DNA of 64,000 bases from an uncultured Chloroflexia bacterium (lineage in GTDB: Bacteria > Chloroflexota > Anaerolineae > JAAYZQ01): NCBI GenBank assembly GCA_963700285.1, contig CAVOXA010000001.1, positions 1,728,001 to 1,792,000 of the forward strand, read 5' to 3'. Position 1 is the stretch's first letter. Every line of letters begins with the position of its first letter. Below, piece after piece: positions 1-38,684 of the stretch. The translations under genes and the position numbers were made by a program. Under the pieces are notes generated by a model. That model did no database searches, was not told the origin of the DNA, and saw nothing but the letters and a program-made list of their open reading frames with translations.

Positions 1-1224
1 ACGCAGCCCTTCAGGTTCGTCCGGCCGCAGTCCGGGGCCTGGTCCCCCCAGGGGTAGGTCCGGGCGTTGGTCCCGCGGGCCGCCTTCTCCCACTCGGCCT
101 CGGTGGGCAGGCGCTTGCCGGCCCAGGTGCAATAGTCGCGGGCGTCGTACCAGGACACCCAGATGACCGGATAGTCGGCGTAGGACGGGTTGCCATAGTA
201 GGAGGAGCGCGTATCGGATCCGTAGCTGGTGGGCGGATCGCAGGCGCCGGCAGCCACGCACTGGGCATATTGGACGTTGGTCACCTCGTACCGGTCGATG
301 GCGTAGGCGTCCAAGGTACACGGTGTGCACCGGCTGCTCGTCGCTGTCGCCGTCTTTGCTGCCCATGGTGAACTCGCCGGCGGGCACAGAGACCATGCCG
401 GCGGGCGGGCCGCTTGTTACCGTGACAAAATCCCAAACCGGCCCGGTGGTGGTCGCCCCCCGCGAATCCCTGGCCACCACCTGCCAGTCGTAGTGCGCAC
501 CCTCACCCAGCGCACCGGGGTCGCAACTGGCGCTGGCCACGTCGTTGCACATGAGCGTATCCGGCGTGCTGTCCCCAGCCTCCAGGTAGACGTCATAGGT
601 CACCGCATCGCCATCGGGATCGCCGCCGCTCCAGCTCAGCTTCACATTCACGCTCTGATCCGTGGCGCCGTCAGCCGGCGAGGGAGCCCAGGGGCTGGTG
701 GGCGGCTGGTTCGGGCGGTCCCTGCGGATCGTGGGCAGGTGTGCGCGGTGGATCATGGGAAAGGTGGCGCGCAGGGTGTAGGCGGACCTGTTATTGAAGC
801 CCGTGGGTGTAGTAGATATAGATGTAATAGGTCCCCGGCATCCCCGGTGTAGTCCAGGTGGTAGGGCGCTTCCAGATCAGCGGTCACCCGGTTGGCCGTC
901 GATTGGTAGAACAACTGCAATTGTACGTGCTGACCGGTGTGGTTGGTCAGGTCGACGGCGATCGGCGCCAGCCCGGTAGAGATGGATGGAAAAGTAGTCC
1001 TTCTCGTCGTTGGGATAGCCATAGTAGGTCCGGTGCGAGCGCAGCGGGCCGTTGGCCTGCTGGTAGCTGTTGTTGGGCTCGCTCTCCCACGGCCCCTCAA
1101 AGTAGGCCTGGCTGGCCGCCAGGGGCGCCTGGGACGCCGCCGGATAGGCCGGCACCCACCCCAGGGCCAGCAGTATGGTCATGGCCAGAATCGTTATCCC
1201 CATGGGCTTCATTGGCTGGCTCAC
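1..1224 (-). CDS. Secreted multidomain protein: signal peptide + PPC-like domain + Fn3-like domain + FGE-sulfatase (SUMF1) domain; frameshifted, runs off window edge
   Basis: ORF 877..1224 has a signal peptide and ESEPNN...ANGPL...DYF. Manual minus-strand reading gives [22 protein letters not shown] (~430-490), [13 protein letters not shown] (~360-396), [11 protein letters not shown], and [34 protein letters not shown]...YPWG (~45-175), the canonical FGE-sulfatase motifs. Several indels. Confidence 0.8.
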
Positions 1225-1261
1225 TCCTCCAGTTGTGCGCTATCGCCCCGCTGGGCAGTGC

Positions 1262-3130
1262 CTACGGCGGCGCCACCGTGGCCCCGCCACCCCCGCCACC
1301 CCCGCCTCCTCCCGAGCGCTTCCAGGTCAGCAAGCGCACGGCGCTGGCCGGACTGAGGGGCGTGCCCCTGGGCTTGCCCTGGGCGTCCTCCCCCGTCTTG
1401 AGCATCGCCCGCACCGACCAGCGGAACTCCCCATTCGTCGACAGGTCCGGCAGGTACTTGTGTTCGCTCATGGTCCAGCTCGTCCCTTTGGTCCAGGGCA
1501 CGTCGTCGGTCCAGGTGTCCCCTCCGTGGGGGTAGGTCACCGTGACGGCATAGAAGCCGTCGGCCGGCAACTGGCCCACCGGCGCCCATTCCAGGACGAT
1601 GGGCTCGTCCCCTGAAAACGCCTGGCCGCCGGCCGGGCCCCGCAGCACCGGTGCCGGGAACTCGTTGCCCGTCGACCGGGGTGGCTGCGTCCGCGTCGGC
1701 GGAGGCCGGGTCGACGGCGGCCGGGGCGCCGTTGCCGTTGGCGGTGCCGCTCTCGTCGCGGTGGCCGCCTGGCTAACCGTCGGCCTGGGCGTGCGCGTCG
1801 GCGCTAGCGTGCGGGTTGGTACTGCCATCTGGGTCGCCGTGTCGGCGGGCCGCTGGGTTGGCGCGTCGGTGGGTGGCGTCGTCGACGTTGGCTGTATCGG
1901 CGTTGGTGTTGGCTGGACGCGCGCCGGCGTCGCGCTCGGCGCCACGGCGGGCAGCGACGTCGGGTTCGGCGCGGCCCGCAGCGTTGCCGTCGGCTCCGGG
2001 GCCGGCCGGGTCGCCGTCGGCCTCAGCGTGGCCGTCTCGCCCGGCGGGTTCAGGGCCACTTCCAAGAGCTCGGTGGGCCGGCCCTGCTCCGTCCGTCCAT
2101 CTCTGCCGTTTCCCGTCATCAGGGCCAGCAGTCCCAGCAGGAGCAGCAGCGCCACGGCTACGCCGGCCAGGAACCAGGGCAGTTTTTTGCGATCCAGGCC
2201 CTCCCCCTGGGTCGGGAGAGGATCTGCCCTGCGACCCATCAACCTCGTCGGCGGCAGCGCGGCCGCACGGGCGGCGACGCCCAGGCCCGCAGGGCGGAGG
2301 GCAGCCTGGGCCAGTGCCCGGCGCATCTCCGCCGCTGACTGCCAGCGGTCCTGCTTTTGCAGGGCCATGGCCTTCAGCACCACGTCCTCCACGGCCGCGG
2401 ATACCTGGGCCCCGGGGTTGGCTTCCCGCAGGCCCGGCAGCGGCGCCCCGGCGCCCCGGTTCAGGGATTCCACCGGCGCCACCCCCGTCAGCAGATAGTA
2501 GAGCGTGCCGCCGACGCCATAGAGGTCGGTCCGGGCGTCGGTCTGCCCCCGCGTGGCGTACTGCTCCAGCGGCGCGAACCCCGGCGACAGGGCCAGCGCG
2601 CCGGTCATCGTGTGCTGGCCCTGTACGTACTCCTTGGCGATGCCAAAGTCGACCAGCATCGCCTTGCTGGCCTGTCCCTTGGGCCCGGCCGGCGTGACCT
2701 TGATGTTGGCCGGCTTTACGTCGCGGTGGATCACCGCCGGATCCTGGCTGTGCAGGTAGTCCAGCGCGTCCAAAACCTGGTCGGCCCAGGCCAGCGCCTG
2801 CGCCGAAGGCGCCGGCCCCTGCTGCTCCACCCGATCGGCCAGGTCGAGTCCCTCGACATAGTCCATGACCAGGTAGTAGCGCCCTGTCTGGGCGAAATAG
2901 TCGGTCACCCGCGGCAGGTGCGGGTGGTCGAGGTGGGCCAGGAAGCGCGCCTCGCGCTGGAACTGCTGCTGCGCCCTGGGCGAGACGTCCAGCGTCTCCT
3001 TGACGGCGCACAGCTTGTCCAGGCGCTGGTCGCGGGCCAGGTACACGGCCCCCATGCCCCCCTGGCCCAGCAGCCGCTGGATCTGGTACCGGTTTTGCAG
3101 GATGGTGCCTGCGGGTAGTAGGCTGGTCAT
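1262..3130 (-). CDS. Hanks-type Ser/Thr protein kinase 1 (kinase - TM - Pro/Thr linker - extracellular beta-sandwich)
   Basis: LGQGGMGAVY, AVKE, HRDVKPAN, DFGIA, FAPLEQ; TM LPWFLAGVAVALLLLLGLLALM; start placed at ATG 3130 inside ORF 1262..3187. Confidence 0.95.
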   Translation of the reverse strand: MTSLLPAGTILQNRYQIQRLLGQGGMGAVYLARDQRLDKLCAVKETLDVSPRAQQQFQREARFLAHLDHPHLPRVTDYFAQTGRYYLVMDYVEGLDLADRVEQQGPAPSAQALAWADQVLDALDYLHSQDPAVIHRDVKPANIKVTPAGPKGQASKAMLVDFGIAKEYVQGQHTMTGALALSPGFAPLEQYATRGQTDARTDLYGVGGTLYYLLTGVAPVESLNRGAGAPLPGLREANPGAQVSAAVEDVVLKAMALQKQDRWQSAAEMRRALAQAALRPAGLGVAARAAALPPTRLMGRRADPLPTQGEGLDRKKLPWFLAGVAVALLLLLGLLALMTGNGRDGRTEQGRPTELLEVALNPPGETATLRPTATRPAPEPTATLRAAPNPTSLPAVAPSATPARVQPTPTPIQPTSTTPPTDAPTQRPADTATQMAVPTRTLAPTRTPRPTVSQAATATRAAPPTATAPRPPSTRPPPTRTQPPRSTGNEFPAPVLRGPAGGQAFSGDEPIVLEWAPVGQLPADGFYAVTVTYPHGGDTWTDDVPWTKGTSWTMSEHKYLPDLSTNGEFRWSVRAMLKTGEDAQGKPRGTPLSPASAVRLLTWKRSGGGGGGGGGGATVAPP

Positions 3131-3189
3131 GGTAACTGACACTGAACCTTTCCGAGCGAGATGATGGTAGACGTAGTCTTTCCCCACTC

Positions 3190-4188
3190 CTAGTACTTGG
3201 CTTCCAGGGTATAGGGCTTGGTCAGATCGTCCCCAGCGAAGCGGTAGACCCGGATGTAGTGTTTTCCGCCTGACTCGGGTTTGAACTTGATAGACTCTCT
3301 TTCCCCTTTCCCTGCTGTACTCGATCCGGCGACCAGTTCCCTGTTGGCATCATATACCCACAAGTCCAGATCCAACGGCTCTGGTACTGTCAACGTGAGT
3401 TCGACTCGCTGGTTCTGAACAACGTTGATGTAGAAGTAGTCGCTCCTCTTGTCCTCCCCCCCTTGGCAGTACCCGACATAGGGCACATCTCGAGGTAGCG
3501 GCCCACACGCGGCAGTAAGCGTGTGGTTCGTAGCGCACGTAAAGTACGTTCGCATGACTGCCGGTACGAAGATGCTTTGCTTGACGACCACCTTGGGCGG
3601 CGTTTGATCACTGATCTCCAACGGTGTATTATCACCAACTCCTATTCTCGCTGTGTTGTCAAGTATTGTCTCGCCTACCGGCAGATCATCCAACCCGACG
3701 ACCTGCACCACGAACTTGAGCAGCACCGGCTCCGTCCCAACTTCGCCGTTCCACGTAAGCGTACCGGCGGGTGATTCTGTAAAGTCCTCGGACTGTTGGA
3801 AAGCGTAGAAGTTGCCCAGCACGTCGGTCACGGTAACACTGCCCATGAGCACGCCCGTATTGACGAGTTTGACGGTATATTCAACCAATGAACCCGGCGT
3901 TACTTGTTCGCCGCCTTTGTTGCTGGTTTTCGTTGAACTGCTCAGATTGGGATCTCGCCCGAAATCTGTACCCATCGCGATCAAGTCTCCACCCTTGGTG
4001 GCCGCAGTAGTGTATACCATGAGTGTGATTGCCTGACCTCGAGGAGTGGACATCTGCCCAGTATCCAGGTGTGTGGGTTGACTGGTACCTGCTGCCATCG
4101 CTGGAACTGCAGCGAAGCAAGCCACCACCAAAAAAGCCAGGATGTATTCCGCCAGGCTCCTGTTCAGATGGTCTCCTTTGCTTTTCAT
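3190..4188 (-). CDS. Secreted DUF11-like Ig domain + C-terminal PPC-like domain protein
   Basis: Signal peptide ending AMA; K..VTPGSLVEYTVKLVNTG..VTVTDVL (DUF11-like); DYFYI..LDLDLWVYD..YIRVY..Y.L (PPC-like); GGAGG RBS before ATG 4188; visibly AT-richer than its flanks. Confidence 0.75.
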   Translation of the reverse strand: MKSKGDHLNRSLAEYILAFLVVACFAAVPAMAAGTSQPTHLDTGQMSTPRGQAITLMVYTTAATKGGDLIAMGTDFGRDPNLSSSTKTSNKGGEQVTPGSLVEYTVKLVNTGVLMGSVTVTDVLGNFYAFQQSEDFTESPAGTLTWNGEVGTEPVLLKFVVQVVGLDDLPVGETILDNTARIGVGDNTPLEISDQTPPKVVVKQSIFVPAVMRTYFTCATNHTLTAACGPLPRDVPYVGYCQGGEDKRSDYFYINVVQNQRVELTLTVPEPLDLDLWVYDANRELVAGSSTAGKGERESIKFKPESGGKHYIRVYRFAGDDLTKPYTLEAKY

Positions 4189-4265
4189 TATGGCCCTCCG
4201 TCTTACTCGGAATTTCTTGCGCAACTCGATGGGAAGTGAGAGGTTCTAGTTCCTCAAGCAAGTCC

Positions 4266-5946
4266 TTATGGCCCCGGTGGGGCTTTGTTTTCCTCACTAT
4301 CTTTGCCATTGCCCCCACCACTAGTGTACTTGAACTTGCGTTTTGCTGCCCATTCGCCGGCTATCGTTGGCAGAACAGCTCGTTGTCAGCGCAGCCTTTG
4401 TGCACTACCACCACTGACCAGTAGTAGGTATCTGTCCCATACTTCTTGATGGCGGGTGCCTCCTGCTCAACTCAACCTGAGTTCGTACGCTGTTGTCGGT
4501 GGATGGCCCCCCGCCGTGGACGCCTAGGGGAAGACTGTCCTCGTCCTCGGCCAGATACGAAGGTCAAAGTAGTAGTCATCGGGCAGCGGCTCATCGTGCC
4601 CATCGCCACGCGAAGATCGGCGCGTACCCTCCAGCTCTGAATCGTTCGTCGGTTCTAGCAGCCCCGCAGCCGGGAACGGTACGTCGGCGTACTTGTCGGC
4701 TGGCGGTCCGCGCGTCGTGGGCTGCTGGGGCTCTTGTCGGCTGGCTTTGTGGCCGCAGTTGGTTCTGCGACCGTGGTCGGAATTAAGGTCGCTGTTGGCT
4801 CTCCCGGTGCCAGCTGCCTCTAGACCCGGCGAGCCTACCGGCGCCGGTGGGCACCGGCGTGTCTCGGCCAGTTGACGCGCCCTGGTCAACGGGTACCTTC
4901 AGCGGCGAGTGTAGCCGTGGGCGGGACGCCTGGACCTCCGGTACGTCGGATCGCCGGCAGCTGGCGCCCCGGTTTCGCCGCCTCGCGTAAAGAGGGTAGT
5001 AGATACCCAGGAGGATCAGCAGACCGCCAGCAAGACCCCCGCCACGGCCGCCATGGCCCAGGGCGCTCTGGATCAACGGCCGTTCCTGCGGCGCCGCCAC
5101 CACCGTCGGCACCCTGGACTCCCCGTCCGGGGCGCTGACAATCACCACGCCGATGTTGTCGCTGCCACCCCGCGAATTGGCCAGGTCGATGAGCAGGTCC
5201 GCCGCCTCCTCGGGCGGGTTCCGCCGCACCAGCTCCGCGATCTCTGGTCCTCCACGTGCCCGGTCAGGCCGTCGGTGCACAGGAAGAGGCTCTCACCCTC
5301 GTTCAGCGCTCCCTTCGAATATGTCCACTTCGACCGCAGGCTTGGCGCCCAGGGCGCGGGTGACCACGTTGCGCTGGGGGTGCTTTTTGGCCTGCTCGGG
5401 CGTCAGCAGCCCGGCCCGCATCTGCTCCTCCACCCAGGAGTGGTCGGTGGTGATCCGCTGGATCCCCTGCGGGCCGATGACATAGGCCCGGCTGTCGCCC
5501 ACGTTGGCCACGTACACCCTGCGCCCCAGGATGACGGCCGCTACCAGCGTGGTGCCCATGCCCGACTTGGATGGGTCGGACTGGGCCCAATTGTAGATCT
5601 TTTGGTTGGCGGCCCGAAAGGCGCGCGTCAGGCTGGTGGGAATGTCGTGGACGGCGTCGGGGTAATACTCCTGGCGGACCACCTCCACCGCGGCGCGGCT
5701 GGCCACCTCGCCCGCGCTGTGACCCCCCATCCCATCGGCCGCCATGTATAGCGCGCCCTTGCGCGCCAGCTCGTCCGGCTCCGGTGGGATGTAGTAATCG
5801 ACATAATCCTCGTTGTGGGGCCGGGAACGGCCGACGTCGGTCTTGGCGGCGACAGTCAGGTTCAGCGCCGGCTGACTGCCGGCCGGCCTGGGGGATTTGG
5901 CAGGTTCGGGCTTTGCCGGGGCCTGCGCCCCGCGGTTGCTGCTCAT
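4266..5946 (-). CDS. PP2C (Stp1/PstP-like) phosphatase 1 with TM and extracellular beta-sandwich; multiply frameshifted
   Basis: ORF 5293..5946 has TDVGRSRPHNED, ADGMGG, NVGDSRAY, DHS, TRALG. It continues in ORF 4783..5280 (GGSDNI, hydrophobic GGLLILLGIYY), then 4524..4889 (LPDDYYFDLRIW), then by manual reading YYWSVVVV...KFKYTSGGG...APPGP-TAA at 4266. Confidence 0.8.
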
Positions 5947-5986: not shown

Positions 5987-7615
5987 TCATGGCTCTGCGG
6001 TGGGCTGCAGCGTCACAGTTGGCTGCGACGTCGCACGTCCCTTGCTCTCAACGGGCACATAGCGGCCCTGGTCCAGCCGGTAGATCTTTTCCTCGGACAA
6101 CATCATCGGCCGAGCCCCATCTGCCGACACCCACCGGCCATGGGCCAGAATCGGCTCTCCCCTCTGTAGTTCGGGGTGAGCTTTGGTGTGTAAGGGGGTA
6201 TCGGGATACCCGCCGGCCGTGGCATACACCCAGACCGGTTCGCTCCGGCCAACCTCCTGAGCCTGATAGCCGCGCTCCCAGCTCGGATTCCACCACGCCC
6301 AGGTTGGCGGCCATTGTGTCCACAGGGGTTCCAGGAAATCGATCTGCTGGGCGACGACGGACCCCCTTGGTCCCTCCTGGTAGCCAAAGACCCAAACCCG
6401 CTTGCCCGGGAATTCCGTTGTGGCGTCCTGTTCCTCAAGGCTCACCAGAAAGGTCTCTGTGCCCATCCTCAACTGAAAATCGCAACCCCCGGATCTCTCC
6501 CGGCATCTCTGTGCCCGGCCCACCAGGAAGATCCCGCGCCGGGCGGGCCACAGGTCTGCCTCCCGCTGGTTCACCTCGTTCCCTTCCTGGGCCTCCATCG
6601 CCGCCACATCGTTGTAGCCCAGGCTGCTGGCAACTTGGGCCAGCGCCTCCTCGCCCAGCGAATCATAGTGCACAGGATGGGGTTGCGGGGCCGCCTGGGG
6701 CCCGGACCCCACTTTGCCCTGGGCCACCAGGACGGCAGCCGCCAGCGAGGCGATCAGACACAGAAACAAGAGAATGACCATACCCGCGGCCAGGGCCCGG
6801 TGCTCCCTCCCTCCGGCCTGGTCCGCGGCGACGCGCGGGCGGCCGAATAGACCGGTCCCGGGCTCAGCCTGCACCACCATGGCCGTGGCATTGTCTTTGC
6901 CGCCCAGCGTGCTGGCCTGGGCCACCAATTCGGCCGCTGCGGCGCCGGGCGGCTGGGCCTGGAGGATCTCGGCCATCTGCTTGTCCGAAAGCTCTCCGCT
7001 CACGCCGTCGGTGCACAGCAAGAGCGCATCTCCCTTGCGCAGCTTGCGCTCAAAGATGTCCACCTCCACCGTGGGCCGGATGCCCAGCGCCCGCGTGATC
7101 AGGTTGCGTTGGGGGTGCTTCTGGGCCTGCTCCCGGGTCAGCAGCCCGGCCCGAAACTGGGCCTCCACCCAGGAGTGGTCGACGCTGATCTGGGTCAGGC
7201 GCTTCCGGCGCAGCAGGTAGGCCCGGCTGTCGCCCACGTTGGCGATGGTCGCCTGGGGCCCCTTGCCCTGGAGGACGGCGGCCACCAGCGTGGTGCCCAT
7301 GCCGGCCAGGGCCGGATCGGCCTGGGCCCGTTCATAGACCTCCAGGTTGGCGACCTTGATGGCCCGCTCCAGGCTGTCGCCCACGCCGGGGCTGGTGTCC
7401 GCATAATAGGCCTCTTTCACCCGCTCCACAGCGGCCCGGCTGGCCACTTGCCCGGCCCTGTGGCCGCCCATGCCGTCCGCTACCAAAAAGAGCGCGCCCT
7501 TCTCCCGGCGCTGATCCTCATCCTCGGGCAGGCAAAAGCTGGTATAGTCCTCGTTTCTTTCACGCGTCGGCCCGGTGTCGCTCTTCTGGCCGATCTCCAA
7601 GTACGGTTCTGTCAT
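5987..7615 (-). CDS. PP2C phosphatase 2 with TM and large extracellular domain
   Basis: RERNED, VADGMGG, NVGDSRAY, LCTDG, GGKDN motifs; TM ALAAGMVILLFLCLIASLAAAVLVA; ~240 aa C-terminal domain of unknown family. Confidence 0.93.
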   Translation of the reverse strand: MTEPYLEIGQKSDTGPTRERNEDYTSFCLPEDEDQRREKGALFLVADGMGGHRAGQVASRAAVERVKEAYYADTSPGVGDSLERAIKVANLEVYERAQADPALAGMGTTLVAAVLQGKGPQATIANVGDSRAYLLRRKRLTQISVDHSWVEAQFRAGLLTREQAQKHPQRNLITRALGIRPTVEVDIFERKLRKGDALLLCTDGVSGELSDKQMAEILQAQPPGAAAAELVAQASTLGGKDNATAMVVQAEPGTGLFGRPRVAADQAGGREHRALAAGMVILLFLCLIASLAAAVLVAQGKVGSGPQAAPQPHPVHYDSLGEEALAQVASSLGYNDVAAMEAQEGNEVNQREADLWPARRGIFLVGRAQRCRERSGGCDFQLRMGTETFLVSLEEQDATTEFPGKRVWVFGYQEGPRGSVVAQQIDFLEPLWTQWPPTWAWWNPSWERGYQAQEVGRSEPVWVYATAGGYPDTPLHTKAHPELQRGEPILAHGRWVSADGARPMMLSEEKIYRLDQGRYVPVESKGRATSQPTVTLQPTAEP

Positions 7616-7653: not shown

Positions 7654-8907
7654 TCAAGGGGCTGGGCTCGGCGCGGATGGTGGTTCGGCCAACGGCGTTT
7701 CGGTGGTTATTGCCGTGGGTTCCGCTGTCGGCCGCGGCGTGGGCCGCGGTGTCCAGGTCGATGTGGCTGCCAGGGTGGCCGTGGGCTCCTTGGTGATGGT
7801 TGGCGTCTTTGTGATTGTCGGCGTACTCGTCGCTGTGTCAGTCAGGTTCACCGGCAGCACTGTTCCCTCGGTGCTTGCCGCTGCCGGCACCTCGCTTCCC
7901 GGCGCCATGCCGGGCGCAACCGGCTGATTGGAGAGCAATTGGGGCCAGAGCACCCAGCCTATCAGGGCCAGCAGGGCCAGCAACAGGGCCAGCGTGGCGC
8001 CCACCAGCACCAGGCGCGGCGCATAGCGCCGCCATGCCGACGGTCTCCGTGCGCCCTTACCCGCCCCATCCAGGACGCCCGACGCCACCGGATCGTGCTG
8101 GAGCATGGCCTGGATCAGCTCGCCGGCGGTGCGGAAGCGCGCTTCCGGTGGCTTGGCCAATGCTCGAAGGAGCGCCTGCTCCTGCTCCGGGCTGAGCTTG
8201 GGGTTGGCGTTCCGCGGCGAGGGCGGCGTCATCTCCAGGTGCTGGTTCAGCAGCACGATGTCGTGGTCGCCGCGCACCGGTGGCTTCCCGGCGATCATTT
8301 CGTACAGAACCACCCCCAGGGAATAGATGTCGCTCCAGGGACCCACCGGCCGGTCACCGGCCGCCTGCTCGGGCGAGGCATAGGTGGGCGTGCAGGCCTG
8401 GGTACAGGTGCCCTGGCGCTGGGCAATGCCAAAGTCGGCCAGGCTCGCCCGGCCTTTGCCGCTGATGAGGATGTTCTGCGGTTTTATGTCCAAATGAACC
8501 CAACCCAGGCTGTGGATGGCATCCACAGCCTCGGCCACCGGCTTGAGTAGCTTGGCCGCCGCTGCCGGATCGAACCGGTTTCTGCCTTCCTTGGCCCGCT
8601 GCAGCATGTGCCACAGCGAATCGGCCACATACTCCAGGGCCACAAAGAGGTTTCCCTCCGGCGTGCGGCCCACCTTGTACAACTGCCGGACGTTGGGCGT
8701 CCCCTCCTGGTTCAGGTAGGCCGTCAACCGCGCCTCGGCCTGGAACTTGGCATAGGTTTGCTCATCGCGGCGGTGCAGGACCTTCAGGGCCACGTACCGT
8801 TCCAGCGACTGGTCCCAGGCCTTGTAGACCACCGAATGGCGGCCCCGTCCCAACTCGGCAACGACCTGGTATTGGTCAATGGTGCGTCCGATCAGCGAGT
8901 TGGCCAT
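7654..8907 (-). CDS. Ser/Thr kinase 2, non-RD type (kinase - TM - Pro/Thr-rich tail)
   Basis: LGRGRHSVVY, VALK, HLDIKPQN, ADFGIA, YASPEQ, SDIYSLG; TM LVLVGATLALLLALLALIGWVLW. Confidence 0.92.
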   Translation of the reverse strand: MANSLIGRTIDQYQVVAELGRGRHSVVYKAWDQSLERYVALKVLHRRDEQTYAKFQAEARLTAYLNQEGTPNVRQLYKVGRTPEGNLFVALEYVADSLWHMLQRAKEGRNRFDPAAAAKLLKPVAEAVDAIHSLGWVHLDIKPQNILISGKGRASLADFGIAQRQGTCTQACTPTYASPEQAAGDRPVGPWSDIYSLGVVLYEMIAGKPPVRGDHDIVLLNQHLEMTPPSPRNANPKLSPEQEQALLRALAKPPEARFRTAGELIQAMLQHDPVASGVLDGAGKGARRPSAWRRYAPRLVLVGATLALLLALLALIGWVLWPQLLSNQPVAPGMAPGSEVPAAASTEGTVLPVNLTDTATSTPTITKTPTITKEPTATLAATSTWTPRPTPRPTAEPTAITTETPLAEPPSAPSPAP

Positions 8908-8922
8908 GCTCGTCTCTGCTCG

Positions 8923-21206: not shown

Positions 21207-21406
21207 CAACGATCCTTTCCTTGGCTTTTTTGCCTGCTCTTTCTGATGTGTTACGCTCCTCCAACCTCCGGCCAAACCTTCTTCGTCACTGGCGGTCTGG
21301 CCCGGTGAAACCGCCCTACCCTACATGATGGCCTATCGCCGTCAGTTTTGCATCTGCATGTCATTTCTGCGGCTGGTCGTACCCCTCTCCAGACCTTCCC
21401 TGCTCC

Positions 21407-29452: not shown

Positions 29453-29569
29453 CGCTGCTATTCCAGCTTGAACTCCTGACCTTGATGAAAAAGGCTGTGT
29501 TGGGATCGGCTGGCGGCCCACGCTGCGCTGCGCTGGATGCGTAGCCTGACGGCTTCGCCTCCCTTCTCC

Positions 29570-29959: not shown

Positions 29960-31054
29960 TCAGCCAGGATGCTGCCGCACCCGCTTTCGATTCAGCAATG
30001 ACAGCGTCAATCGCCCGATCCCGCCCACGATCAGTAGTACAAGCCCAGAGATTGTGAGCCAAACTCCAGGCAGAATGGCCATCTCTATGTCGGTGAGATA
30101 GTCAACGCCTTTCATGATCTGATCCACTTGAATGTCAAAAAGAAGGTTCAGGGCTCTTGCGTGGTTGTAGAGTTGGAGAAACGTTCGCAGGTCAAGGGCA
30201 ACCGCCACGATGGCAAAAAGACCGGCGAGTAGGTATACGATCCCCGGCACCACCCACGTACGGTGGAAGAACATGTCTACGATCAGAAAGACCAGGCTGA
30301 TCGCGGCGATGGCAAGCGTCAGTGTCCCATAGGAGTCTATTCCCATGATCTCGCGCGTGAAAAGGCGGCTAGGATCGGTCCCAAACAGGCTGGAGAGTAT
30401 GCCTACTCCTGCCTGAATAAGTGGGTCTAGCTCCTTGGACACAGTTCCAGTGATCCTCACCCAGGGTAGAAAGGCTCCGCTCGCAAGGAACACCACTGCT
30501 GCTGCCACGAGCCCCTGTACGAACCAGAAGGCCACTGCTCGGCCCTCCCAGGCACCCTTGCTGGCGGGAGACTTGGCGGCCGGCGGCCGGGATGCGGGCC
30601 GAGAGGCGCCTCCGGGCTGTCTGGCGTGTACGGCCGGCGGCGCCGGTACCAGATGCTGCATCTCTGCTGTTTTCTCTCGCTGGCTGCTGGGTTGTGCGGT
30701 CCGGTTGGCGGGCTGGCCCGCTGCTACCGGGGAAGGGGGACGCGCGCCAGACTCACGCAAGACCATCGTTGTCTCGCCGATGGTGATCCGATCCCCCAGG
30801 CGCAGAGCGTATGGGTGGTGGACCTCCAGTCCATTCACGTAAGTGCGATTGGTGCTGCCGCGATCCACCACGAACCACGTCTGTCTCTGGTCATCCCAGC
30901 GGATGTCGGCATGGCGGCGCGATGCCCGTACGTCATTCAGGACAATGTGACAGTCCGAGGAGCGGCCCACGCAGAGTCGCGTTTGTCTCGTTGGGTCCAG
31001 GGGATACGAACGACCTGCCGTTGGGCCTTCCTGAAGGATTAGCGTAGCTTTCAT
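29960..31054 (-). CDS. FHA + multi-pass membrane domain protein
   Basis: VGRSSDC..ASRRHA..STNRTYVNG; Pro-rich linker; ~4 TM with G.FLPW motif. Confidence 0.9.
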   Translation of the reverse strand: MKATLILQEGPTAGRSYPLDPTRQTRLCVGRSSDCHIVLNDVRASRRHADIRWDDQRQTWFVVDRGSTNRTYVNGLEVHHPYALRLGDRITIGETTMVLRESGARPPSPVAAGQPANRTAQPSSQREKTAEMQHLVPAPPAVHARQPGGASRPASRPPAAKSPASKGAWEGRAVAFWFVQGLVAAAVVFLASGAFLPWVRITGTVSKELDPLIQAGVGILSSLFGTDPSRLFTREIMGIDSYGTLTLAIAAISLVFLIVDMFFHRTWVVPGIVYLLAGLFAIVAVALDLRTFLQLYNHARALNLLFDIQVDQIMKGVDYLTDIEMAILPGVWLTISGLVLLIVGGIGRLTLSLLNRKRVRQHPG

Positions 31055-31146: not shown

Positions 31147-31617
31147 CTACGGTGAGATTACGACCAAGGTAGCTAGCACACCTAGCACCAGTAGCAGCAC
31201 GGCCGTCACGCCAATCATGGCGAATATCAAAGGGTGAAGAGCGCCATCCGCCGGCCCCGCGGCTGCGTCTGAATAGCCAGGCTCGTCGATGGGCGCCATG
31301 CCTGCTTCGTCGTACAGCGCGTAGAAGGCAAGTACCGTACTGGCCAGTCGAACGCGGTCGCCGGAAGAGAGCAGGTGGGGCACGTGCGGCTGAATCGCCT
31401 GCTCGTTGACAAAGGTACCGTTCCGGCTGTTCAGATCTTTGATGATCCAGTCACCGTTCTCGTAGCTGACCCTCGCGTGTTGGCGCGAAGCTAGCTCGTC
31501 AGCCAGTACAATGTCGCACTGCAAAGAGCGCCCCAGCGTGGCCTGACCGTCGGCCACCAGGTGTTCCTGACCAACATCTGGGCCATCCATTACCACGAAC
31601 CTGGCAACTGGAGACAT
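31147..31617 (-). CDS. FHA - C-terminal TM protein
   Basis: LGRSLQCD..ASRQHA..DLNSRNGTFVN; C-terminal hydrophobic helix. Confidence 0.92.
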   Translation of the reverse strand: MSPVARFVVMDGPDVGQEHLVADGQATLGRSLQCDIVLADELASRQHARVSYENGDWIIKDLNSRNGTFVNEQAIQPHVPHLLSSGDRVRLASTVLAFYALYDEAGMAPIDEPGYSDAAAGPADGALHPLIFAMIGVTAVLLLVLGVLATLVVISP

Positions 31618-31714: not shown

Positions 31715-33535
31715 CTACTCGACCCAATCCATCCGGGTCCAGGTCCACTCTGGTCCGGTCTCGCCGTCGAACATCTCAAAAGCCCCGCCGCCGATGCCTG
31801 ACGTCACCCAGACCGCCCCCTGCCCGCCCCGGTCAGAACGAAAGGCGATCCGCAGGCCACTGGGTGACCATACCGGCATGGTATCGGTGGCTGCGTTAAG
31901 TGTGATACGCCGCAACCAGGACCCGTCCGAGTTGATAACATAGATCTCCCAGTTCCCATCCCGGTCGGACATGAAGGCGATCTGCCCGCCGTTGGGCGAC
32001 CACCGGGGCGCTGCATCGTTGGCATGGGTCGTGATCTGTCTCGGATTCGAGCCGTCGGCGTTGGCCACCACCACTCCACACCTGCCCCCGCTCACACAAC
32101 CCCGGTATACGATCTGATCGCCCGCCGGCGACCAGGCAGGATACTCCCCCGAGCCAATGTCCCGGCGCCCGGTCCCATCTCGATTGATGACGTGCAGGGA
32201 CTTTAGATCGTCGTTGAAGAATGAGATGCGCTCGCCATCGGGGGCAAAAGAGGGGTAGCCGTCCTTGTCCACAGCCGTCAGCGGCTGGTCGTCGTTGCCA
32301 TCGGTGTTGACCACCCGTAGGCCGGCCGTGTCGGCGCCCCAGGAGTGATAGACCAGGCGCTGGCCATCGGGTGAAAAGTCCGGATCGCCAGCCTCCTCGA
32401 TAAAAAGAGAGACCTGCCCATCCGCAGCATCGGCCAGATAGAGGTCGTATTCTTCCCTATCCTTGTCATAGATGCCCAGGGCCATCCGTCCCTCGACCGG
32501 CCCCAATTTTGGCAAAGCGATCCCCTGGCCCGGAAAGACGAGGTTCAGCAGCGCCTGGGTATCCTGCTCTGAAAGGCCCGGGAAAGAGGCGGCGACCACC
32601 TGAGGTAACCGTGCCGGAATCACGCCAGGGAACAGAGAGCCGATCATACCCTGCGCCTGCTGAGGCGTGAGCGTCTGCATCTGTGCCGCAATGGCCTGGG
32701 GAAGTTGATCGGGTGGTACGCCCGGAAAGGCCGTGGCCACCATGACAGGCAATTGTTCCAGCCCGCCTGCCGGGAGCGCTCCGAGGGCTGGCGCTCCGGC
32801 AGCCGGCGCCTGTGTTGGTTGCACGGGCGGAGGAGCCGGAGCTTTGACCTCGACGGTGGGTTGCAGCTCGACCGTAGGAGCATCGATGTCGACGATCGCA
32901 GTGGCCGCCGAATGCGCTGGTGGCTGCGGCGTTGGCGTCGCGGCAAGCTCGATAGGGGCGGTCGATGCCGTCAAAGCTGCCGGGCCTGCCACGGCTACGG
33001 TGGGCTCGGGCCCGCCCGGGCGCGTTCTCAGTGCCTGAAACAGGACCAGGGCGACTGCCACGGCTAACACGGCAACTATCGCCACCAGACCCCAGATCAG
33101 GTATCGCTGCCGGCTGTCTTCGGCCGCGGGTCCGTCCTCGGGTACATAATACTCCCGTTCCCAGTCAGTCTCAGGCCCCTCCCCTCGAGCTGGTGCAACC
33201 GCTGCAGACGCGGGGAATGCCATGGTGGCATCGCAGCTCAATATCGTATTCCCGATCTGGACTTGGTCTCCCGGCCGCAGAACTCGAGGCCCTGAGATAC
33301 GCTCGTTGTTGACGAGCGTCCCGTTCACGCTACCCAGGTCCCGGATATAGAACTGGTCGCCCTGCTGGCTGATCTCGGCATGGCTCCGGGATGCCTGGCT
33401 GTCCTCCAGGACAATGTCGTTCGCTGATCCCCGGCCCAGCCGCACAGACGGTCGGTCAACGGGGAACTGTATGCCCGCCTGCGGGCCTCTTTGTACAGTC
33501 AGTACCATCATGCAATTCACCGCCTTTCTTAGCAT
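31715..33535 (-). CDS. FHA - TM - FPG repeats - TolB-like (PD40) beta-propeller protein
   Basis: LGRGSAND..ASRSHA..DLGSVNGT; TM; repeated PDFSPDG/PAWSP/PRWSPNG/PVWSPSG; true start may be ~33511. Confidence 0.9.
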   Translation of the reverse strand: MLRKAVNCMMVLTVQRGPQAGIQFPVDRPSVRLGRGSANDIVLEDSQASRSHAEISQQGDQFYIRDLGSVNGTLVNNERISGPRVLRPGDQVQIGNTILSCDATMAFPASAAVAPARGEGPETDWEREYYVPEDGPAAEDSRQRYLIWGLVAIVAVLAVAVALVLFQALRTRPGGPEPTVAVAGPAALTASTAPIELAATPTPQPPAHSAATAIVDIDAPTVELQPTVEVKAPAPPPVQPTQAPAAGAPALGALPAGGLEQLPVMVATAFPGVPPDQLPQAIAAQMQTLTPQQAQGMIGSLFPGVIPARLPQVVAASFPGLSEQDTQALLNLVFPGQGIALPKLGPVEGRMALGIYDKDREEYDLYLADAADGQVSLFIEEAGDPDFSPDGQRLVYHSWGADTAGLRVVNTDGNDDQPLTAVDKDGYPSFAPDGERISFFNDDLKSLHVINRDGTGRRDIGSGEYPAWSPAGDQIVYRGCVSGGRCGVVVANADGSNPRQITTHANDAAPRWSPNGGQIAFMSDRDGNWEIYVINSDGSWLRRITLNAATDTMPVWSPSGLRIAFRSDRGGQGAVWVTSGIGGGAFEMFDGETGPEWTWTRMDWVE

Positions 33536-33677: not shown

Positions 33678-34280
33678 CTATTGGGGCACTGGCGTTACCG
33701 TCGCCCCAATACGGAGCTCCAGAAGGTCCTTCGGGATCCTGGTAACCACGCCGGGTACCAATTCTTGGATCTGGGCTGGCATTGGCAGAGTGGTCAGTAT
33801 CCCCTCAATCTGGCCCATGGGTTCCGCCATGGGAGGCGCTGGCTCCGGCTGTAGCATGGTGACTAGCAGCAGTACAATGCCGCTCAACGCGACAACCAGC
33901 AGGACAGCGCCTGCGACCATCAAGACCGGGTGGCGTGCAGTGGAGGCTCGATTCCCTCGATGGACCTCCTTTGCCCCAGGGGCGTCTTCCCGTCTATCCC
34001 GCCGGATAGTCAGGATCGCACTGCCTATCGCCACCCGGTCCCCGGCCCGTAGCAGATACGCGCCATCTATGCTCCGGCCGTTGACGTAGGTACCATTTGT
34101 ACTGCCCAGATCACTCAGCACCCAGCCTTGGGAGCCACGCTCTATGCGGGCATGCCGTCGTGAGACTCCCTGATCGCTTAGCACCAAGTCATTCTCAGCG
34201 CCGCGCCCGATGGCCATCACCGGCTTTTTCAGGGCAAAGCCCTGCCCTGAACTGCTCCCCTGCTCAATGACCAGTTGCAC
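33678..34280 (-). CDS. FHA - TM protein
   Basis: IGRGAEND..VSRRHA..DLGSTNGTYVNG; TM VLMVAGAVLLVVALSGIVLLLV. Confidence 0.92.
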   Translation of the reverse strand: MQLVIEQGSSSGQGFALKKPVMAIGRGAENDLVLSDQGVSRRHARIERGSQGWVLSDLGSTNGTYVNGRSIDGAYLLRAGDRVAIGSAILTIRRDRREDAPGAKEVHRGNRASTARHPVLMVAGAVLLVVALSGIVLLLVTMLQPEPAPPMAEPMGQIEGILTTLPMPAQIQELVPGVVTRIPKDLLELRIGATVTPVPQ

Positions 34281-34340: not shown

Positions 34341-36164
34341 TCAGGTTACCCTGGTGAAAATGAACGCTGCATCGCCAAATCGGACGATGTCCCCATGCTC
34401 CAGGCGGCGGGGATCTTTGACCGGCTCGTCATTCACAAAGGTCCCGTTGGCACTGCCGATGTCAAAGACCACAAAGTCCTGGTCCTCCAGCTTGATCCAG
34501 GCGTGATTGCGGGAAATGGTGGGATCATCCAGGATGATCTGGTTGTCCCGTGCGCGACCGATGTTCGTCATCTCCTGAAGATCGTACTTTTGGCTGGGCC
34601 TGGACTTGTCCACCAACATGGCCACGTACCTGGTCTGGCGTTTGATGAGGCGTGTGCCTCCAGCTTGGGGAATGCCAGGCTCCATAGGGGTGTCAGCGGG
34701 TTGCCCGCCAACAATCGGAGCGGCCGGCGTGGCCCCTGGCCAGGGGGCAGGGAACTGGTCCATGGCACCCTCGGTTGCCGCGTCCATCATCGGCGTCCTG
34801 GGGCCAGCGGTGTCTGCAGCCCAGCCGCCAGCGGATGCACCATACGTAACGTCATATTCTTGGCTATCCAAGTCCTCTTGCTCGTCTCGTCGCCCTCTTA
34901 GCAGAACGATCAGTAGGGCCACGATGAGGATAATGAGGAGCAGGACACCTGCTCCGATCACTATGCCCAGAGAGGGGTTCTCCTGGAAGGCGTCGATGAT
35001 CCTCTCTATCAGGCCAGGCTCTTCCGGAGGCGGTGGCGGGGGGACTGGCTCAACCGGGGCCGTGGTTGGTACCTCTTCCGTGGCCACTGCGACAACTGGG
35101 CCTGTCGTCTGCGCATCTGTTGGCGCCGGCAAGGTGGGTGTTGTCCCAGTTTCAGGCTGCGGGGGTGGTATGGGTCTCAGCGGGTCCTCACTGAACGTGA
35201 ACTTGACCTCGCCGTAGCCTTGTCCCTGGGGGATCTGGGCCCGCACAAGTAGGCTGTGGGGGTTGTCATCCTCCTGTATCCTCGACTGGTAGGTCAGGAC
35301 ATACTGCTCCTTAAGCTGGTTGACGACGTTTTCAAAGAGTGGTGTCAGTTCCTCAGGCTCGGGCGCTTGTTGATAAACCGCTCCCGTTCGTTCGGCCACG
35401 CGATTCAGATACTTTGTGTCAATCCCCCCCAGCCCCACCAGGCCAATGGTAAAGATAGGGATGTTTCGTCGGTTGGCTTCGTTGATGGGATCGTCGGGGG
35501 AGACCTGGCTACCAGCATCCTTGACGGGTGTACCCTGCGCGTTGTCGCGCTCGTCCCGGCCGTCTGTCAACACGACCACCGCCCGCTTGCCCGGCGGTTC
35601 TGCGGCAACCCACTTGACCCCCTTGTAGATGGCATCGTACAAGGGGGTGTCCCACCCGATCTTTTGGTCAAGAAAGTTCACCACATTGCGCACGGCGTTC
35701 TTGTCGGTGGTGAACGCAAGCTCCTTGCCCTCTTCGATATTGGCGGGATCGATGTCGACTTTGTCAGTAAAGGCGATGATAGCTACCCGATCCGTAGGTG
35801 ACAACTGGTCGAGCAGGGCATTGGCTGCCCTCATAGCCTCCTTGATCGGTTTGTCCCTCATGCTGCCACTGATGTCGATCACCATGACAACAGAGATGCC
35901 AGCATCAGGGTTCACTTGGGTCGACACCTGTGCGGGCGGGAATGAGGCCATTCCGTCTTCGACGATCTCAAAGTTCTGCGTGCCTAGACCGGGGATGGGG
36001 ACACCGTTTTCGTTGCGGACCGTCACCCAGGCCTCAGTCACCGGGTGCTGATCCAGGGTCAGTTCGTCGACGGAAAGGTTCACCACACCCTGGGCACTGG
36101 TGGGCAAGGCGCTGACCAGTATCGTCAACAGAATGAGCGTGGCGGCAATCCAACGTTTCTTCAT
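34341..36164 (-). CDS. Signal peptide - vWA (MIDAS) - TM - cytoplasmic FHA protein
   Basis: Signal ending TSA-Q; DISGS..TPLYDA..LTDG MIDAS; TM LGIVIGAGVLLLIILIVALLIVLL; C-terminal IGRARDN..ISRNHA..SANGTFVN; GAGGAGGAG RBS. Confidence 0.93.
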   Translation of the reverse strand: MKKRWIAATLILLTILVSALPTSAQGVVNLSVDELTLDQHPVTEAWVTVRNENGVPIPGLGTQNFEIVEDGMASFPPAQVSTQVNPDAGISVVMVIDISGSMRDKPIKEAMRAANALLDQLSPTDRVAIIAFTDKVDIDPANIEEGKELAFTTDKNAVRNVVNFLDQKIGWDTPLYDAIYKGVKWVAAEPPGKRAVVVLTDGRDERDNAQGTPVKDAGSQVSPDDPINEANRRNIPIFTIGLVGLGGIDTKYLNRVAERTGAVYQQAPEPEELTPLFENVVNQLKEQYVLTYQSRIQEDDNPHSLLVRAQIPQGQGYGEVKFTFSEDPLRPIPPPQPETGTTPTLPAPTDAQTTGPVVAVATEEVPTTAPVEPVPPPPPPEEPGLIERIIDAFQENPSLGIVIGAGVLLLIILIVALLIVLLRGRRDEQEDLDSQEYDVTYGASAGGWAADTAGPRTPMMDAATEGAMDQFPAPWPGATPAAPIVGGQPADTPMEPGIPQAGGTRLIKRQTRYVAMLVDKSRPSQKYDLQEMTNIGRARDNQIILDDPTISRNHAWIKLEDQDFVVFDIGSANGTFVNDEPVKDPRRLEHGDIVRFGDAAFIFTRVT

Positions 36165-36338: not shown

Positions 36339-36920
36339 CTACAGTCTCTTGAAAACCAGCGTAGTCTCGCCCACGAGCAAATAGTCGCCATCCTGGAGTT
36401 CATGACGGTACGTGCGGTTTTCCTCGCTCTTGTAGGATTCCTTGTCGCCGATGAATGTCCCATTTCGGGCGCCCATATCGTACAACACGAAAGTGGGCTC
36501 CTTGCCCTCCATGGGCTCGGTACGGATCCTAGCGTGTTGTGCCGAGCATGTCTCATCGCGCACTATGATGTGGTTGCCTGCGACCCGACCCAGGGTTGTG
36601 TTGTCAGGCTTGAGTACGTGTACCGTTCCGATTGAATGGCGATCCGGGCCATCGACCACGACCAGCCAGGCAAAGACGGGAGTTGGCCGCTCACTGATGA
36701 CCATGGTTTGATCCTGGGCCGCCCCCGGATCCTGGTGAGGGGGAGCAGTCGGCGCAAAGCCTTGCCTGGCTCCTGCGCCCCATCCACCCTGATCGCCCAA
36801 CGGGAGGGTGGGCGGCGTCGCCCCCTCCATATTCGCATACTCTGTCTCTCGGTCATCCAGATCAGTTCCCGGCTGGAGCCACGGTTCCTGCCGATTGGGG
36901 GTTGTACGATCTTCTGACAC
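36339..36920 (-). CDS. Soluble FHA protein with disordered Thr-containing N-terminal arm
   Basis: LGRVAGN..CSAQHA..ARNGTF..ELQDGDYLLVGET; no TM; GGAGGAGG RBS before GTG. Confidence 0.88.
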   Translation of the reverse strand: MSEDRTTPNRQEPWLQPGTDLDDRETEYANMEGATPPTLPLGDQGGWGAGARQGFAPTAPPHQDPGAAQDQTMVISERPTPVFAWLVVVDGPDRHSIGTVHVLKPDNTTLGRVAGNHIIVRDETCSAQHARIRTEPMEGKEPTFVLYDMGARNGTFIGDKESYKSEENRTYRHELQDGDYLLVGETTLVFKRL

Positions 36921-37001
36921 TGTGTCCTCCTCCCTGTCTCATTGTTGTTCTGTCTGACTACATTCTGGGCAGAAAAGCTCCACCAACCTGCCCTTGCCCG
37001 A

Positions 37002-38684
37002 CTATGGACCCACATCTAGCCTCAGGACATTGTCTCCGATGGCGATCATGGCCCCGGTCCTCAATGGGATCTCGCCATAGACCCTCTGGCTGTCTACCCA
37101 GGTGCCATTCATGGACATGTCCTCCAACCAGTAGCTGCTGCCCCGTAGTACGATTCTTGCATGCTGGCGAGAAATCGCTGGATTCGCTGGGCCAAGGTTC
37201 ATCCGCCCAAGGACCAGGGTCTGATTCGAAAGGGGGATCTGTTGTCTTTCTCGTGGGCCCTGCACGATGGTAAGTCGTGCCTTTTGTGATCCCTTGGGCG
37301 GCACCGAAAAGTCTCCAAAGACACTATGCCCAAGGGCCTTGCCCATCTCTTTGGCCGAGCGATAGCGTTTGCTCCTGTCCTTTTCGAGTGCTCGCATCGC
37401 GATGTGTTCCATCTGCCTGGATACTTGGGCATTCGGGTTCCGCCTCCGGATCGGTTCAGGCCGTTCTTGGAGGTGCTGGCGAATCACTTCCATGGCAGCC
37501 TTGACGTGGTTATCGGTGCGCGGCCGACGGAAGGGAACGCTGCCCGCGAGCATTTCATACAGCACAATGCCCAGGGAGTAAACATCGCTGGCAGGCCACA
37601 CCGGCTCGCCCCGAGCCTGCTCCGGCGAGATGTACTCAGGAGTGCCCACAATCCTATCCCGCGTAACCGTGGAGGCTGAAGTCAGTTTGGCGATACCAAA
37701 GTCCAGAACCTTAACCTTCCAGTCGCCCAGGACCAGGACGTTCTCAGGTTTGATGTCGCGGTGGACTATATCGTTCTCATGGGCAAAGGCCAGCGCTCTG
37801 CACACTTGATCCACGATTCTCAAGATCTGTGGTTCTGGCAATGGTTGTTGCATGATCTTGCGCAGAGACGCGGCATCGACGTACTCCATAACAAGATACA
37901 GTCGGTTGTCCTGACTCTGGCCAAACTTGTGGACATACACAATGTTCGGATGGCCTCTCAGACGAGGCCCGATGCTGTTGCCCTCTTGGACAAATTTGTT
38001 CACCAGATATGGGTTGGTTTCCTGAAGGATCTTGATGGCCACCGTCTCGCCATTTGGGTCGCGTGCCTTGAATACCTCGGACATTCCGCCTCGACCAATC
38101 AGGTTCTCCAGGTAGTAGCCATCAAAGAGTTCTCCCATGACATGTGGCTCTACGGTACGGATAGGTGAGGGAGGAGGTGAAGGCAATGATTTGCCGATGG
38201 TACCAAAGACGAACTGTGATTGCCAGATCTGAATGCGATCGCCGGGTACCAGGACATGGCGCCCTACCCGTTCATCGTTGACCCAAGTTCCATTGGCACT
38301 ATCGCGATCGTAGAGGACGTGCTGCCCGTGCTCTTTCACGATGACTGCGTGGTAGCGCGAGACCATCAGTTCGTCCTCTAGCACAATGCTATTGTCGGGG
38401 TGCCGCCCAATCGTTAATCCCTGGGAGGGGATAGAAAAGCGCTGTTGAGCCAAAGGACCCTGTGTGACAGCCAGCTCGACCGGACTTGCTTCCTGAACTG
38501 CCTGGCCTTGGTTGCTACAGGTAGAACACACGGTGAAACCATTAGGAAGTCGAGCGCCGCACATGGGGCAGCGGTTTGCCCGCTTCTCTCGGGCAAAGAT
38601 CACACTTGCGGCCACAATTGTGGCTAGGAGTGTTGCCGCGGCGAAAATGAACATGACTGTGGATGGGCTGAGCCGTGCCTCCAT
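37002..38684 (-). CDS. Ser/Thr kinase 5 (TM - zinc ribbon - FHA - kinase - FHA)
   Basis: N-terminal TM; CPMCG..CSTC; FHA IGRHPDN..SRYHA..SANGT; IGRGGMS, HRDIKPEN, DFGIA, GTPEYISPEQ; second FHA LGR..ISRQHA..SMNGT. Confidence 0.93.
   Translation of the reverse strand: MEARLSPSTVMFIFAAATLLATIVAASVIFAREKRANRCPMCGARLPNGFTVCSTCSNQGQAVQEASPVELAVTQGPLAQQRFSIPSQGLTIGRHPDNSIVLEDELMVSRYHAVIVKEHGQHVLYDRDSANGTWVNDERVGRHVLVPGDRIQIWQSQFVFGTIGKSLPSPPPSPIRTVEPHVMGELFDGYYLENLIGRGGMSEVFKARDPNGETVAIKILQETNPYLVNKFVQEGNSIGPRLRGHPNIVYVHKFGQSQDNRLYLVMEYVDAASLRKIMQQPLPEPQILRIVDQVCRALAFAHENDIVHRDIKPENVLVLGDWKVKVLDFGIAKLTSASTVTRDRIVGTPEYISPEQARGEPVWPASDVYSLGIVLYEMLAGSVPFRRPRTDNHVKAAMEVIRQHLQERPEPIRRRNPNAQVSRQMEHIAMRALEKDRSKRYRSAKEMGKALGHSVFGDFSVPPKGSQKARLTIVQGPRERQQIPLSNQTLVLGRMNLGPANPAISRQHARIVLRGSSYWLEDMSMNGTWVDSQRVYGEIPLRTGAMIAIGDNVLRLDVGP

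Follow-up and report, generated by a model that had tools for sequence, protein, structure and literature searches.

The window analysed here is a 64,000-nucleotide stretch (C1:1,728,001-1,792,000) of the genome of an uncultured Chloroflexota bacterium, an assembly of 7.05 Mb in 22 contigs that is 89% complete. Its left part holds most of a gene block, or island, for phosphothreonine (pThr) signalling, composed of Hanks-type kinases, PP2C phosphatases and proteins with FHA domains. A Pfam scan of the 64 open reading frames (ORFs) of the window recovers 5 kinases, 3 phosphatases and 13 FHA genes with 16 FHA domains, identical to the counts in the original prediction, and places all of them on the minus strand, as it had claimed. 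The kinase ORFs are 1262-3187, 7654-8907, 8923-10515, 27054-28910 and 37002-38777, and the PP2C ORFs are 5293-5946, 5987-7615 and 18702-19685. FHA matches fall in 14 ORFs, which represent 13 genes because the gene for an ABC exporter is frame-split. A hydropathy scan agrees with the varied membrane topologies that had been named.

The block had been sized at 38 kb or more, up to the window edge. Its confinement to one strand holds, but its true end is at C1:1,716,178, 11.8 kb beyond the left edge. The whole block covers about C1:1,716,180-1,766,800, some 51 kb with 8 kinases on a single strand. The left extension adds three membrane kinases, a secreted PPC protein, a protein with a zinc ribbon (ZnR), a transmembrane segment (TM) and a PD40 domain, a second CLec gene and a reverse transcriptase (RT) remnant of a diversity-generating retroelement (DGR). 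The description of the genes as often abutting or overlapping was overstated: with distances that rest on best-guess start codons, there is overlap at 4 of 34 junctions, 60 bp or less at 15 of 34 and more than 300 bp at 3 of 34. The run of minus-strand genes goes on to the right of the island up to 43,979, and the genes between the two are flank. Besides the true size, the original prediction had overlooked the DGR, the contrast between a core that is conserved and an arm that varies, and a module of radical SAM and reductase genes. The genes of the block are as follows.

1..1218, minus strand: secreted PPC-FN3-like-FGE-sulfatase (CLec) protein, first of two tandem DGR targets, frame-split, extending ~290 bp past the left edge
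L001:17957-19617, beyond the left window edge: second CLec gene
L001:16913-17953, beyond the left window edge: truncated DGR RT
L001:15271-16437, beyond the left window edge: ZnR-TM-PD40 protein
L001:13261-15168, 9885-11918 and 8178-9878, beyond the left window edge: three kinases
L001:11978-13186, beyond the left window edge: secreted MAM/PPC protein
1262..3187, minus strand: K5, kinase-TM-Pro/Thr stalk-FN3-like ectodomain
3190..4224, minus strand: secreted protein with DUF11-like and PPC domains
4524..5946, minus strand: PP3, PP2C-TM-stalk-FN3-like ectodomain, with several frame breaks and an uncertain 3' end
5987..7615, minus strand: PP2, PP2C-TM-ectodomain, the sole island gene with an orthologue remaining at the site in the sister genome G001
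7654..8907, minus strand: K4, kinase-TM-stalk, with HLD for HRD
8923..10515, minus strand: K3, kinase-FHA-TM-small ectodomain
10713..14257, minus strand: secreted LCAT-type lipase/acyltransferase with an OmpL47-type domain and a BNR propeller, one protein over three frames (an unbroken 1215-residue orthologue occurs in G115)
14411..15601, minus strand: F13, FHA-TM-FN3-like ectodomain
15737..16432, minus strand: F12, FHA-zinc ribbon-TM
16573..17115, minus strand: F11, TM-FHA
17085..17396, minus strand: 103-residue ORF without a family match
17393..18700, minus strand: F10, FHA-polytopic membrane protein
18702..19685, minus strand: PP1, PP2C-TM
19731..20351, minus strand: TM206, conserved single-pass protein without a family
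20451..21275, minus strand: TM274, conserved single-pass protein of a Chloroflexota hypothetical family
21407..22430, minus strand: KARI-like reductase paralogue, frame-split
22427..23849, minus strand: B12-binding radical SAM enzyme, frame-split
23852..27000, minus strand: ABC exporter with three FHA domains, ATPase and ABC2 membrane domain (Rv1747-like), frame-split
27054..28688, minus strand: K2, likely lipoprotein with an LppM-like ectodomain (below cut-off), TM and kinase
28685..29659, minus strand: Lgt prolipoprotein diacylglyceryl transferase, overlapping the probable K2 start
29960..31054, minus strand: F8, FHA and four TM segments
31147..31617, minus strand: F7, FHA-TM
31715..33535, minus strand: F6, FHA-TM-stalk-PD40 (TolB-like) propeller
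33678..34280, minus strand: F5, FHA-TM
34341..36164, minus strand: F4, signal peptide-vWA (MIDAS residues intact)-TM-linker with invariant T504-FHA
36339..36920, minus strand: F3, soluble FHA protein with a Thr-rich tail, T6 and T72 conserved
37002..38684, minus strand: K1, TM-zinc ribbon-FHA-kinase-FHA, head of the island

The VAxK, HxD and DFG motifs are kept in all eight block kinases (K4 reads HLD), DGMGG and GDSR in 3/3 PP2Cs, and GR and SxxH in the 15/15 FHA domains aligned. In 0.72% of the genome's length the block concentrates 16 of 21 FHA, 8 of 23 kinase and 3 of 5 PP2C matches; for the FHA genes, 13 of 18 of which are in the block, a binomial test that ignores tandem duplication gives p ~1e-24. 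Island FHA domains share a mean of 38% and a maximum of 49% identity. We rejected a recent tandem expansion: close similarity among the long repeats is confined to the CLec pair (85%) and PP2/PP3 (72%), with kinase pairs at ~65%. A recently acquired foreign island is also unsupported, as the GC content (63.4% in the island) is near the contig value of ~61%, no integrase is matched and an internal gene persists in G001. An Rfam search gave no match, and promoter-like sites occur at the frequency expected by chance.

G001, a genome of the same genus that is 90% complete, carries the left flank at 89% and the right flank at 83-86% identity, 1.05 kb apart on one contig. The gap consists of one gene, encoding a 300-residue PP2C-TM protein, with DNA 76% identical to window 6860-7616. 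On this sequence comparison, the most economical history has an ancestral island at the site, deleted in G001 on both sides of the PP2C gene. The close spacing of both flanks there fixes the unit at ~51 kb and rules out a chimeric join; flank synteny, together with locus order in relatives, thus disposes of the concern over a chimeric assembly that the original prediction had raised. Intact flanks with only one phosphatase between them indicate that the block is both old and dispensable.

To the right, window 39309-64000 contains a cluster for surface polysaccharide (DUF4012, GT2/GT4, Wzz, ParA-like ATPase, sugar transferase, O-antigen ligase and PMT) and a sortase. This region is flank, because its first 11 kb is also present in G001. 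A DUF11 gene within it (41471-42133) ends LPATG. At the right edge of the island is a 185-bp element resembling a miniature inverted-repeat transposable element (window 39036-39219), which has many genome copies of up to 97% identity.

Orthologues of the island genes are co-located in relatives and not scattered, as a gene-neighbourhood comparison across Chloroflexota establishes. Strong full-length matches to F4 (E <=1e-129) occur in 13 of 22 family genomes, and another 2 have weaker ones; across the class it is matched in 39 of 401 genomes at E <=1e-40, counting the genome studied here, and F3 in 26 of 401. By hand comparison of the match coordinates, F3 immediately precedes F4 in 23 of the 26 F3-positive genomes, which span six families; it lies 2.2 kb off in one, and two have no F4 match. 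Seven of eight loci with F4 relatives belong to Anaerolineae, Anaerolineales, Ardenticatenaceae and Candidatus Amarolinea aalborgensis, an activated-sludge filament, with a best identity of 57%; the eighth is a weak archaeal match.

The longer loci, in G005, G008, G009, G011, G018 and G019, have a common order: K1, F3, F4, F5, F6, F8 and the three-FHA ABC exporter, followed by the B12 radical SAM gene, the KARI-like gene, TM274, TM206, PP2C and F12, and then kinases and phosphatases. G394 and G115, from other families, have most island parts with the distal ones shuffled, and the arrangement is looser in G226, G144, G277 and G348. Kinase, PP2C and FHA domains number 8/3/16 here, 10/3/17 in G115 (63.5 kb), 9/2/12 in G394 and 8/3/7 in G144. 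Six long loci (22-63 kb) lie nearly entirely on one strand; G394 has 1 of 23 matches on the opposite one. The head (K1, F3, F4, F6 and the exporter) is conserved and the distal arm variable between genomes, and the flanks of the island vary between genera. K2 and Lgt have no orthologue among 27 locus rows, of which many are short contigs and one is a duplicate.

Outside the class, vWA relatives are 31-38% identical and have at most a kinase, PP2C or FHA neighbour in 10 loci; we rejected these as island members, since the island gene order is missing in 10/10. TM274 was likewise rejected as an island marker: among 11 matches in 400 phylum genomes it has standalone relatives, and 6/6 inspected loci lack the island. 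A literature search found no description of the locus within its reach, which excluded subscription papers and bioRxiv supplements (including the Esr pathway table). The locus is apparently undescribed at such scale.

A threonine motif, T-x-x-[ILMV], stands shortly before the FHA domain in 21 of 22 F3 orthologues, the lone miss being a shortened ORF, and in 12 of 12 scorable F4 orthologues (2 of 14 stop before the FHA domain). Other linker threonines have this pattern in 30 of 133 cases in F3 and 6 of 58 in F4. In the exporter, T-x-x-L precedes the third FHA domain in 6 of 10 orthologues; three rows were mis-anchored by the pattern and one differs. FHA domains favour a hydrophobic residue at pT+3.

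The exporter chain is of Rv1747 type, with tandem FHA domains, ATPase and ABC2 domain, and has intact orthologues of 1070-1090 residues in relatives. The adjoining radical SAM gene scores below the cut-off of every named family, and the KARI-like gene next to it is 31% identical to a second KARI elsewhere in the genome. LuxE-like and LuxC-like genes take the KARI position in G011 and stand at the island end in G394. With radical SAM, KARI-like or LuxE/LuxC-like genes, Lgt and an LCAT-type lipase, the non-signalling genes lean to lipid chemistry, and the exported product is probably lipid-like. Other clusters occur elsewhere. In a satellite on another contig of this genome (L069:7119-16361), LuxE-like and LuxC-like genes, both heavily frame-split, come after two kinases, and a second cluster in G009 (L019:9491-17167) has a three-FHA ABC exporter, a kinase and an FHA-FHA-LCAT lipase fusion. 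A cluster of kinase-FHA, FHA-PP2C, vWA, FHA and kinase genes is present in both this genome and G001 (L071:7845-15635 and L060:6620-14507); paired FHA matches suggest that it is common in the family.

The ectodomains are partly shared and partly exchanged. A 113-residue ectodomain is common to the kinases K5 and K6, the FHA protein F13 and the PP2C orthologues of four relatives (19 matches, with 6 elsewhere in the genome). It is predicted as an all-beta sandwich (pLDDT 84.8), which Foldseek matches weakly to FN3 folds, at a best E of 7e-4 and TM-scores by query of 0.32-0.49. This FN3-like ectodomain is carried by writers, readers and erasers of pThr alike. In the distal arm, outer domains are swapped among genomes, and include CBM9, CBM96, SH3, PD40, LVIVD, Kelch, LRR, TSP3, PPC and FGE. 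The F4 vWA domain keeps D97, S99, T173 and D201 in 20/20 aligned sequences. In sequence searches of the PDB, no significant match was obtained for the shared ectodomain, for TM206 or TM274, or for the ectodomain of K2. A hydrophobic-LP-x-x-x-R motif borders the PPC/BNR modules of secreted proteins (window 3190-4224 and 10713-12131; L001:11978-13186 and 18523-19617; L006:4808-6667; L024:3147-7910). It is possibly a sorting or cleavage signal; a similar pattern occurs in 54 of 9244 six-frame ORFs of the genome. Proteins with LIM and DA1-like domains, which are of eukaryote type, are encoded near two island copies (L041:10360-11514 and L028:9397-10422).

An intact DGR is found in G394, 4.4 kb upstream of the island copy and on the opposite strand. 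Its target is a kinase-SH3-CLec gene, after which come RT, avd and the template repeat (TR), and 15 of 17 mismatches between TR and variable region (VR) are at TR adenines. RT, avd, TR and adenine-specific mismatches are all present. As assembled, the DGR of our genome is broken, with the RT running into a 33-nt VR-like end, and a search of the assembly for avd and for a full TR of either CLec VR found none. Between the two CLec genes, 22 of 26 differences are at codon positions 1-2 in the VR vs 17 of 32 upstream (p=0.013). Elsewhere in the genome, a second DGR appears complete (L073:8740-13666), with a 1075-residue CLec target, an RT and a repeat with 11 of 14 mismatches at A; a third, fragmented RT accompanies CLec genes in L074. 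In one Ardenticatenaceae sequence, an FGE/CLec-bearing ORF (L067:15900-17246) comes straight after a kinase fragment in a vWA-PP2C-kinase cluster.

Seven island genes are frame-split (both CLec genes, one PP2C, and the ABC, lipase, KARI and radical SAM genes), as are 13 of 100 conserved non-island loci; intact orthologues occur in relatives. At the KARI break, one near-identical contig (depth 4.2) is one base shorter. Assembly indels are the likely cause. The breaks appear denser in parts of the island, where local pseudogene decay may be at work.

In the reading that we favour, to which we would give about an even chance, the island encodes a receptor array, made of membrane kinases and phosphatases with FHA adaptors, which would watch the cell surface for foreign contact and respond by turning on its own exporter for a probably lipid-like product of the neighbouring radical SAM and reductase genes. 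This reading builds on gene content, gene order, motif conservation, block loss, ectodomain swapping and a DGR link. Surface ligands would be bound by the vWA domain, by the propellers and by the outer domains that vary among distal-arm kinases, and kinases clustered by ligand would phosphorylate T-x-x-[ILMV] motifs in the tails of F3, F4, TM274 and the exporter. These pThr motifs would bind FHA domains of other proteins, cross-linking the parts into a membrane patch; because the motif stands only ~7-12 residues before the first FHA strand, it is better placed for the FHA domain of another protein than for its own. The exporter may be switched on by pThr in its own linker, by analogy with Rv1747, and membrane PP2Cs with the same ectodomain as some kinases would reset signalling at the same spot. 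Of the dedicated surface-to-exporter signalosome originally proposed, a dedicated, conserved and membrane-anchored pThr locus with an FHA-bearing exporter stands; the general logic of vWA, kinase, PP2C and FHA proteins already exists in smaller systems. A more elaborate version, which we consider possible but doubtful, is an innate-immune-like receptor field. It would combine a fixed pThr/FHA scaffold polymerising under the membrane, an exporter whose lipid cargo serves defence or signalling, and exchangeable, sometimes DGR-hypermutated receptor kinases that recognise non-self neighbours, predators or epibionts. The vWA and propeller receptors, which are adjacent, would form an integrin-like pair with FHA tails.

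Several points weigh against the surveillance array. Domain scans and PADLOC matched no effector toxin, secretion machine or transcription-factor domain, so that 'defence' rests on analogy. Ligand, phosphosites, cargo and transcript are all putative, and the pre-FHA threonine could instead be structural. Core genes are dispensable in part: the G014 and G020 loci have no K1, F6 or radical SAM gene, the G372 locus has no K1, and radical SAM and KARI genes are found in 8 and 5 of the 27 locus rows. TM274 relatives occur alone in other lineages, and a DGR is next to only 2 of the islands examined and broken in our own genome. The glycan-binding ectodomains suit foraging equally well.

Foraging is indeed the first rival to consider: the island could be feeding machinery, with adhesion and secreted hydrolases under the control of a sensor for polymers or dead cells at the surface, as the CBM9, CBM96 and SH3 ectodomains and the secreted lipase, S8 peptidase-vWA protein and BNR propellers of the islands would suggest. 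We consider this unlikely, as Pfam scans matched no uptake or TonB/SusC-like genes inside the block, the exporter and radical SAM module would have no obvious part, and DGR hypermutation is usually tied to conflict (PMC10907252, in its accessible part). Less probable still is a collecting site of separately acting pThr modules with no common output. The highly variable content and order of the distal arm, the lack of K2 and Lgt orthologues and the kinase-kinase-LuxE-LuxC satellite on another contig fit that idea, but the strand bias of the long loci, the fixed order of the head, an ectodomain common to writers, readers and erasers, and the loss of the block as a unit in G001 count against it.

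Improbable, in our judgement, is a housekeeping controller of envelope or filament growth like the mycobacterial pstP-pknA-pknB-fhaA-fhaB cluster. The domain classes are identical, and Lgt and a polysaccharide gene cluster adjoin. The block is nevertheless missing from a 90%-complete sister genome with intact flanks and was not found in most class genomes searched; Pfam scans of it matched no PASTA, RodA or PBP, and its flanks vary between genera. We attach very little weight to the idea that the island regulates type VII (Esx) secretion, in the manner of Esr2, even though kinase, PPM, FHA and vWA genes are found in such loci (PMC11217815, available in part) and G224 has a WXG100 match, below threshold, ~16 kb upstream of its island copy. 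WXG100 is matched in 0/1 for our own genome (89% complete), in 1/23 family genomes and in 0/14 with strong F4; it is missing from G394 and from the near-complete (99%) G144, and our genome has no large multi-domain FtsK ORF. On these grounds we rejected this explanation.

The surveillance array can be likened to several known systems and is a member of none, among them Esr, Rv1747-PknF and vWA-kinase-FHA-PP2C operons. In Esr of Actinomycetes, threat sensing ends with pThr on a disordered linker of an FHA protein (10.64898/2026.09.08.750141, available in part). According to the same partial source, Esr resembles the island in having surface propellers, vWA, Ser/Thr kinase, phosphatase, an FHA protein with a disordered Thr segment and variable sensors. 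The combination of vWA, kinase, phosphatase and FHA protein with Thr in a disordered segment is present in the block, whereas transglutaminase EsrD and the long Ig-repeat EsrA filament have no Pfam match among the island ORFs scanned. Unlike Esr, the block has neither a MoxR nor a transglutaminase match and no Esx link. It has 8 kinases and 13 FHA genes where Esr, as far as that source extends, has one pair; its vWA domain is fused through a TM to its own FHA domain, its output appears to be an ABC exporter, and it belongs to another phylum. In the PknF-Rv1747 pair of M. tuberculosis, an FHA-bearing single-chain ABC exporter also lies beside kinases, and phosphorylation of its linker gates the transporter (PMC8339232, accessible portion); the T-x-x-L threonine of the block exporter may be the counterpart of the regulatory linker Thr. 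On that account Rv1747 has two FHA domains, whereas the block exporter has three and is surrounded by a receptor array of 51 kb that includes radical SAM and reductase genes.

Deinococcus DRA0331-0334 (10.64898/2026.01.23.701218) and Sulfolobus ArnA/ArnB (PMC6509490, PMC12852372; PDB 8s05) likewise combine vWA, kinase, FHA and phosphatase in a phospho-switch, but in the parts of these papers that are available they comprise about four genes; in the block, the vWA domain is predicted to be extracellular, and nearly all parts are anchored in the membrane and carry outer domains. Kinases and sensors diversified by DGRs (PMC7517822, PMC10907252, PMC7159879, each available in part) have a similar Target-RT-avd-TR layout, CLec variable region and kinase-CLec fusion. 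As described there, they go with MoxR/STAND and are mostly cytosolic, whereas here the DGR is in or beside an FHA/kinase array. The MoxR-vWA ternary conflict systems have a MoxR-vWA pair and a third component (PMC7159879). PF07726 (MoxR) matches lie off the island in 5/5 genomes, on which ground we rejected a MoxR system. PADLOC, run on 22 proteins, returned generic kinase, RT and one PP2C matches only, and no known anti-phage system.

GarA, OdhI and EmbR are the top FHA matches. GarA and OdhI are soluble FHA proteins with a Thr-bearing N-terminal tail, as is F3, and the pstP-pknA-pknB-fhaA-fhaB cluster includes PASTA kinase, RodA and PBP genes and is regarded as conserved in all relatives. 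Unlike these, the block is dispensable, has no cell-wall synthase genes and has its conserved Thr close to the FHA domain.

In the majority of bacterial pThr clusters described so far, one kinase-phosphatase pair goes with one or two FHA proteins. Islands of the present type can reach 10 kinases, 3 phosphatases and 17 FHA domains, all on one strand; their gene order persists from family to family, and they occur in a class that is abundant and mostly uncultured. F3 T72, F4 T504 and the candidate exporter linker Thr, together with a near-null sister genome, make specificity among many Hanks kinases testable, and with it the possibility that contact or parasites are perceived in Chloroflexota through a pathway that parallels Esr.

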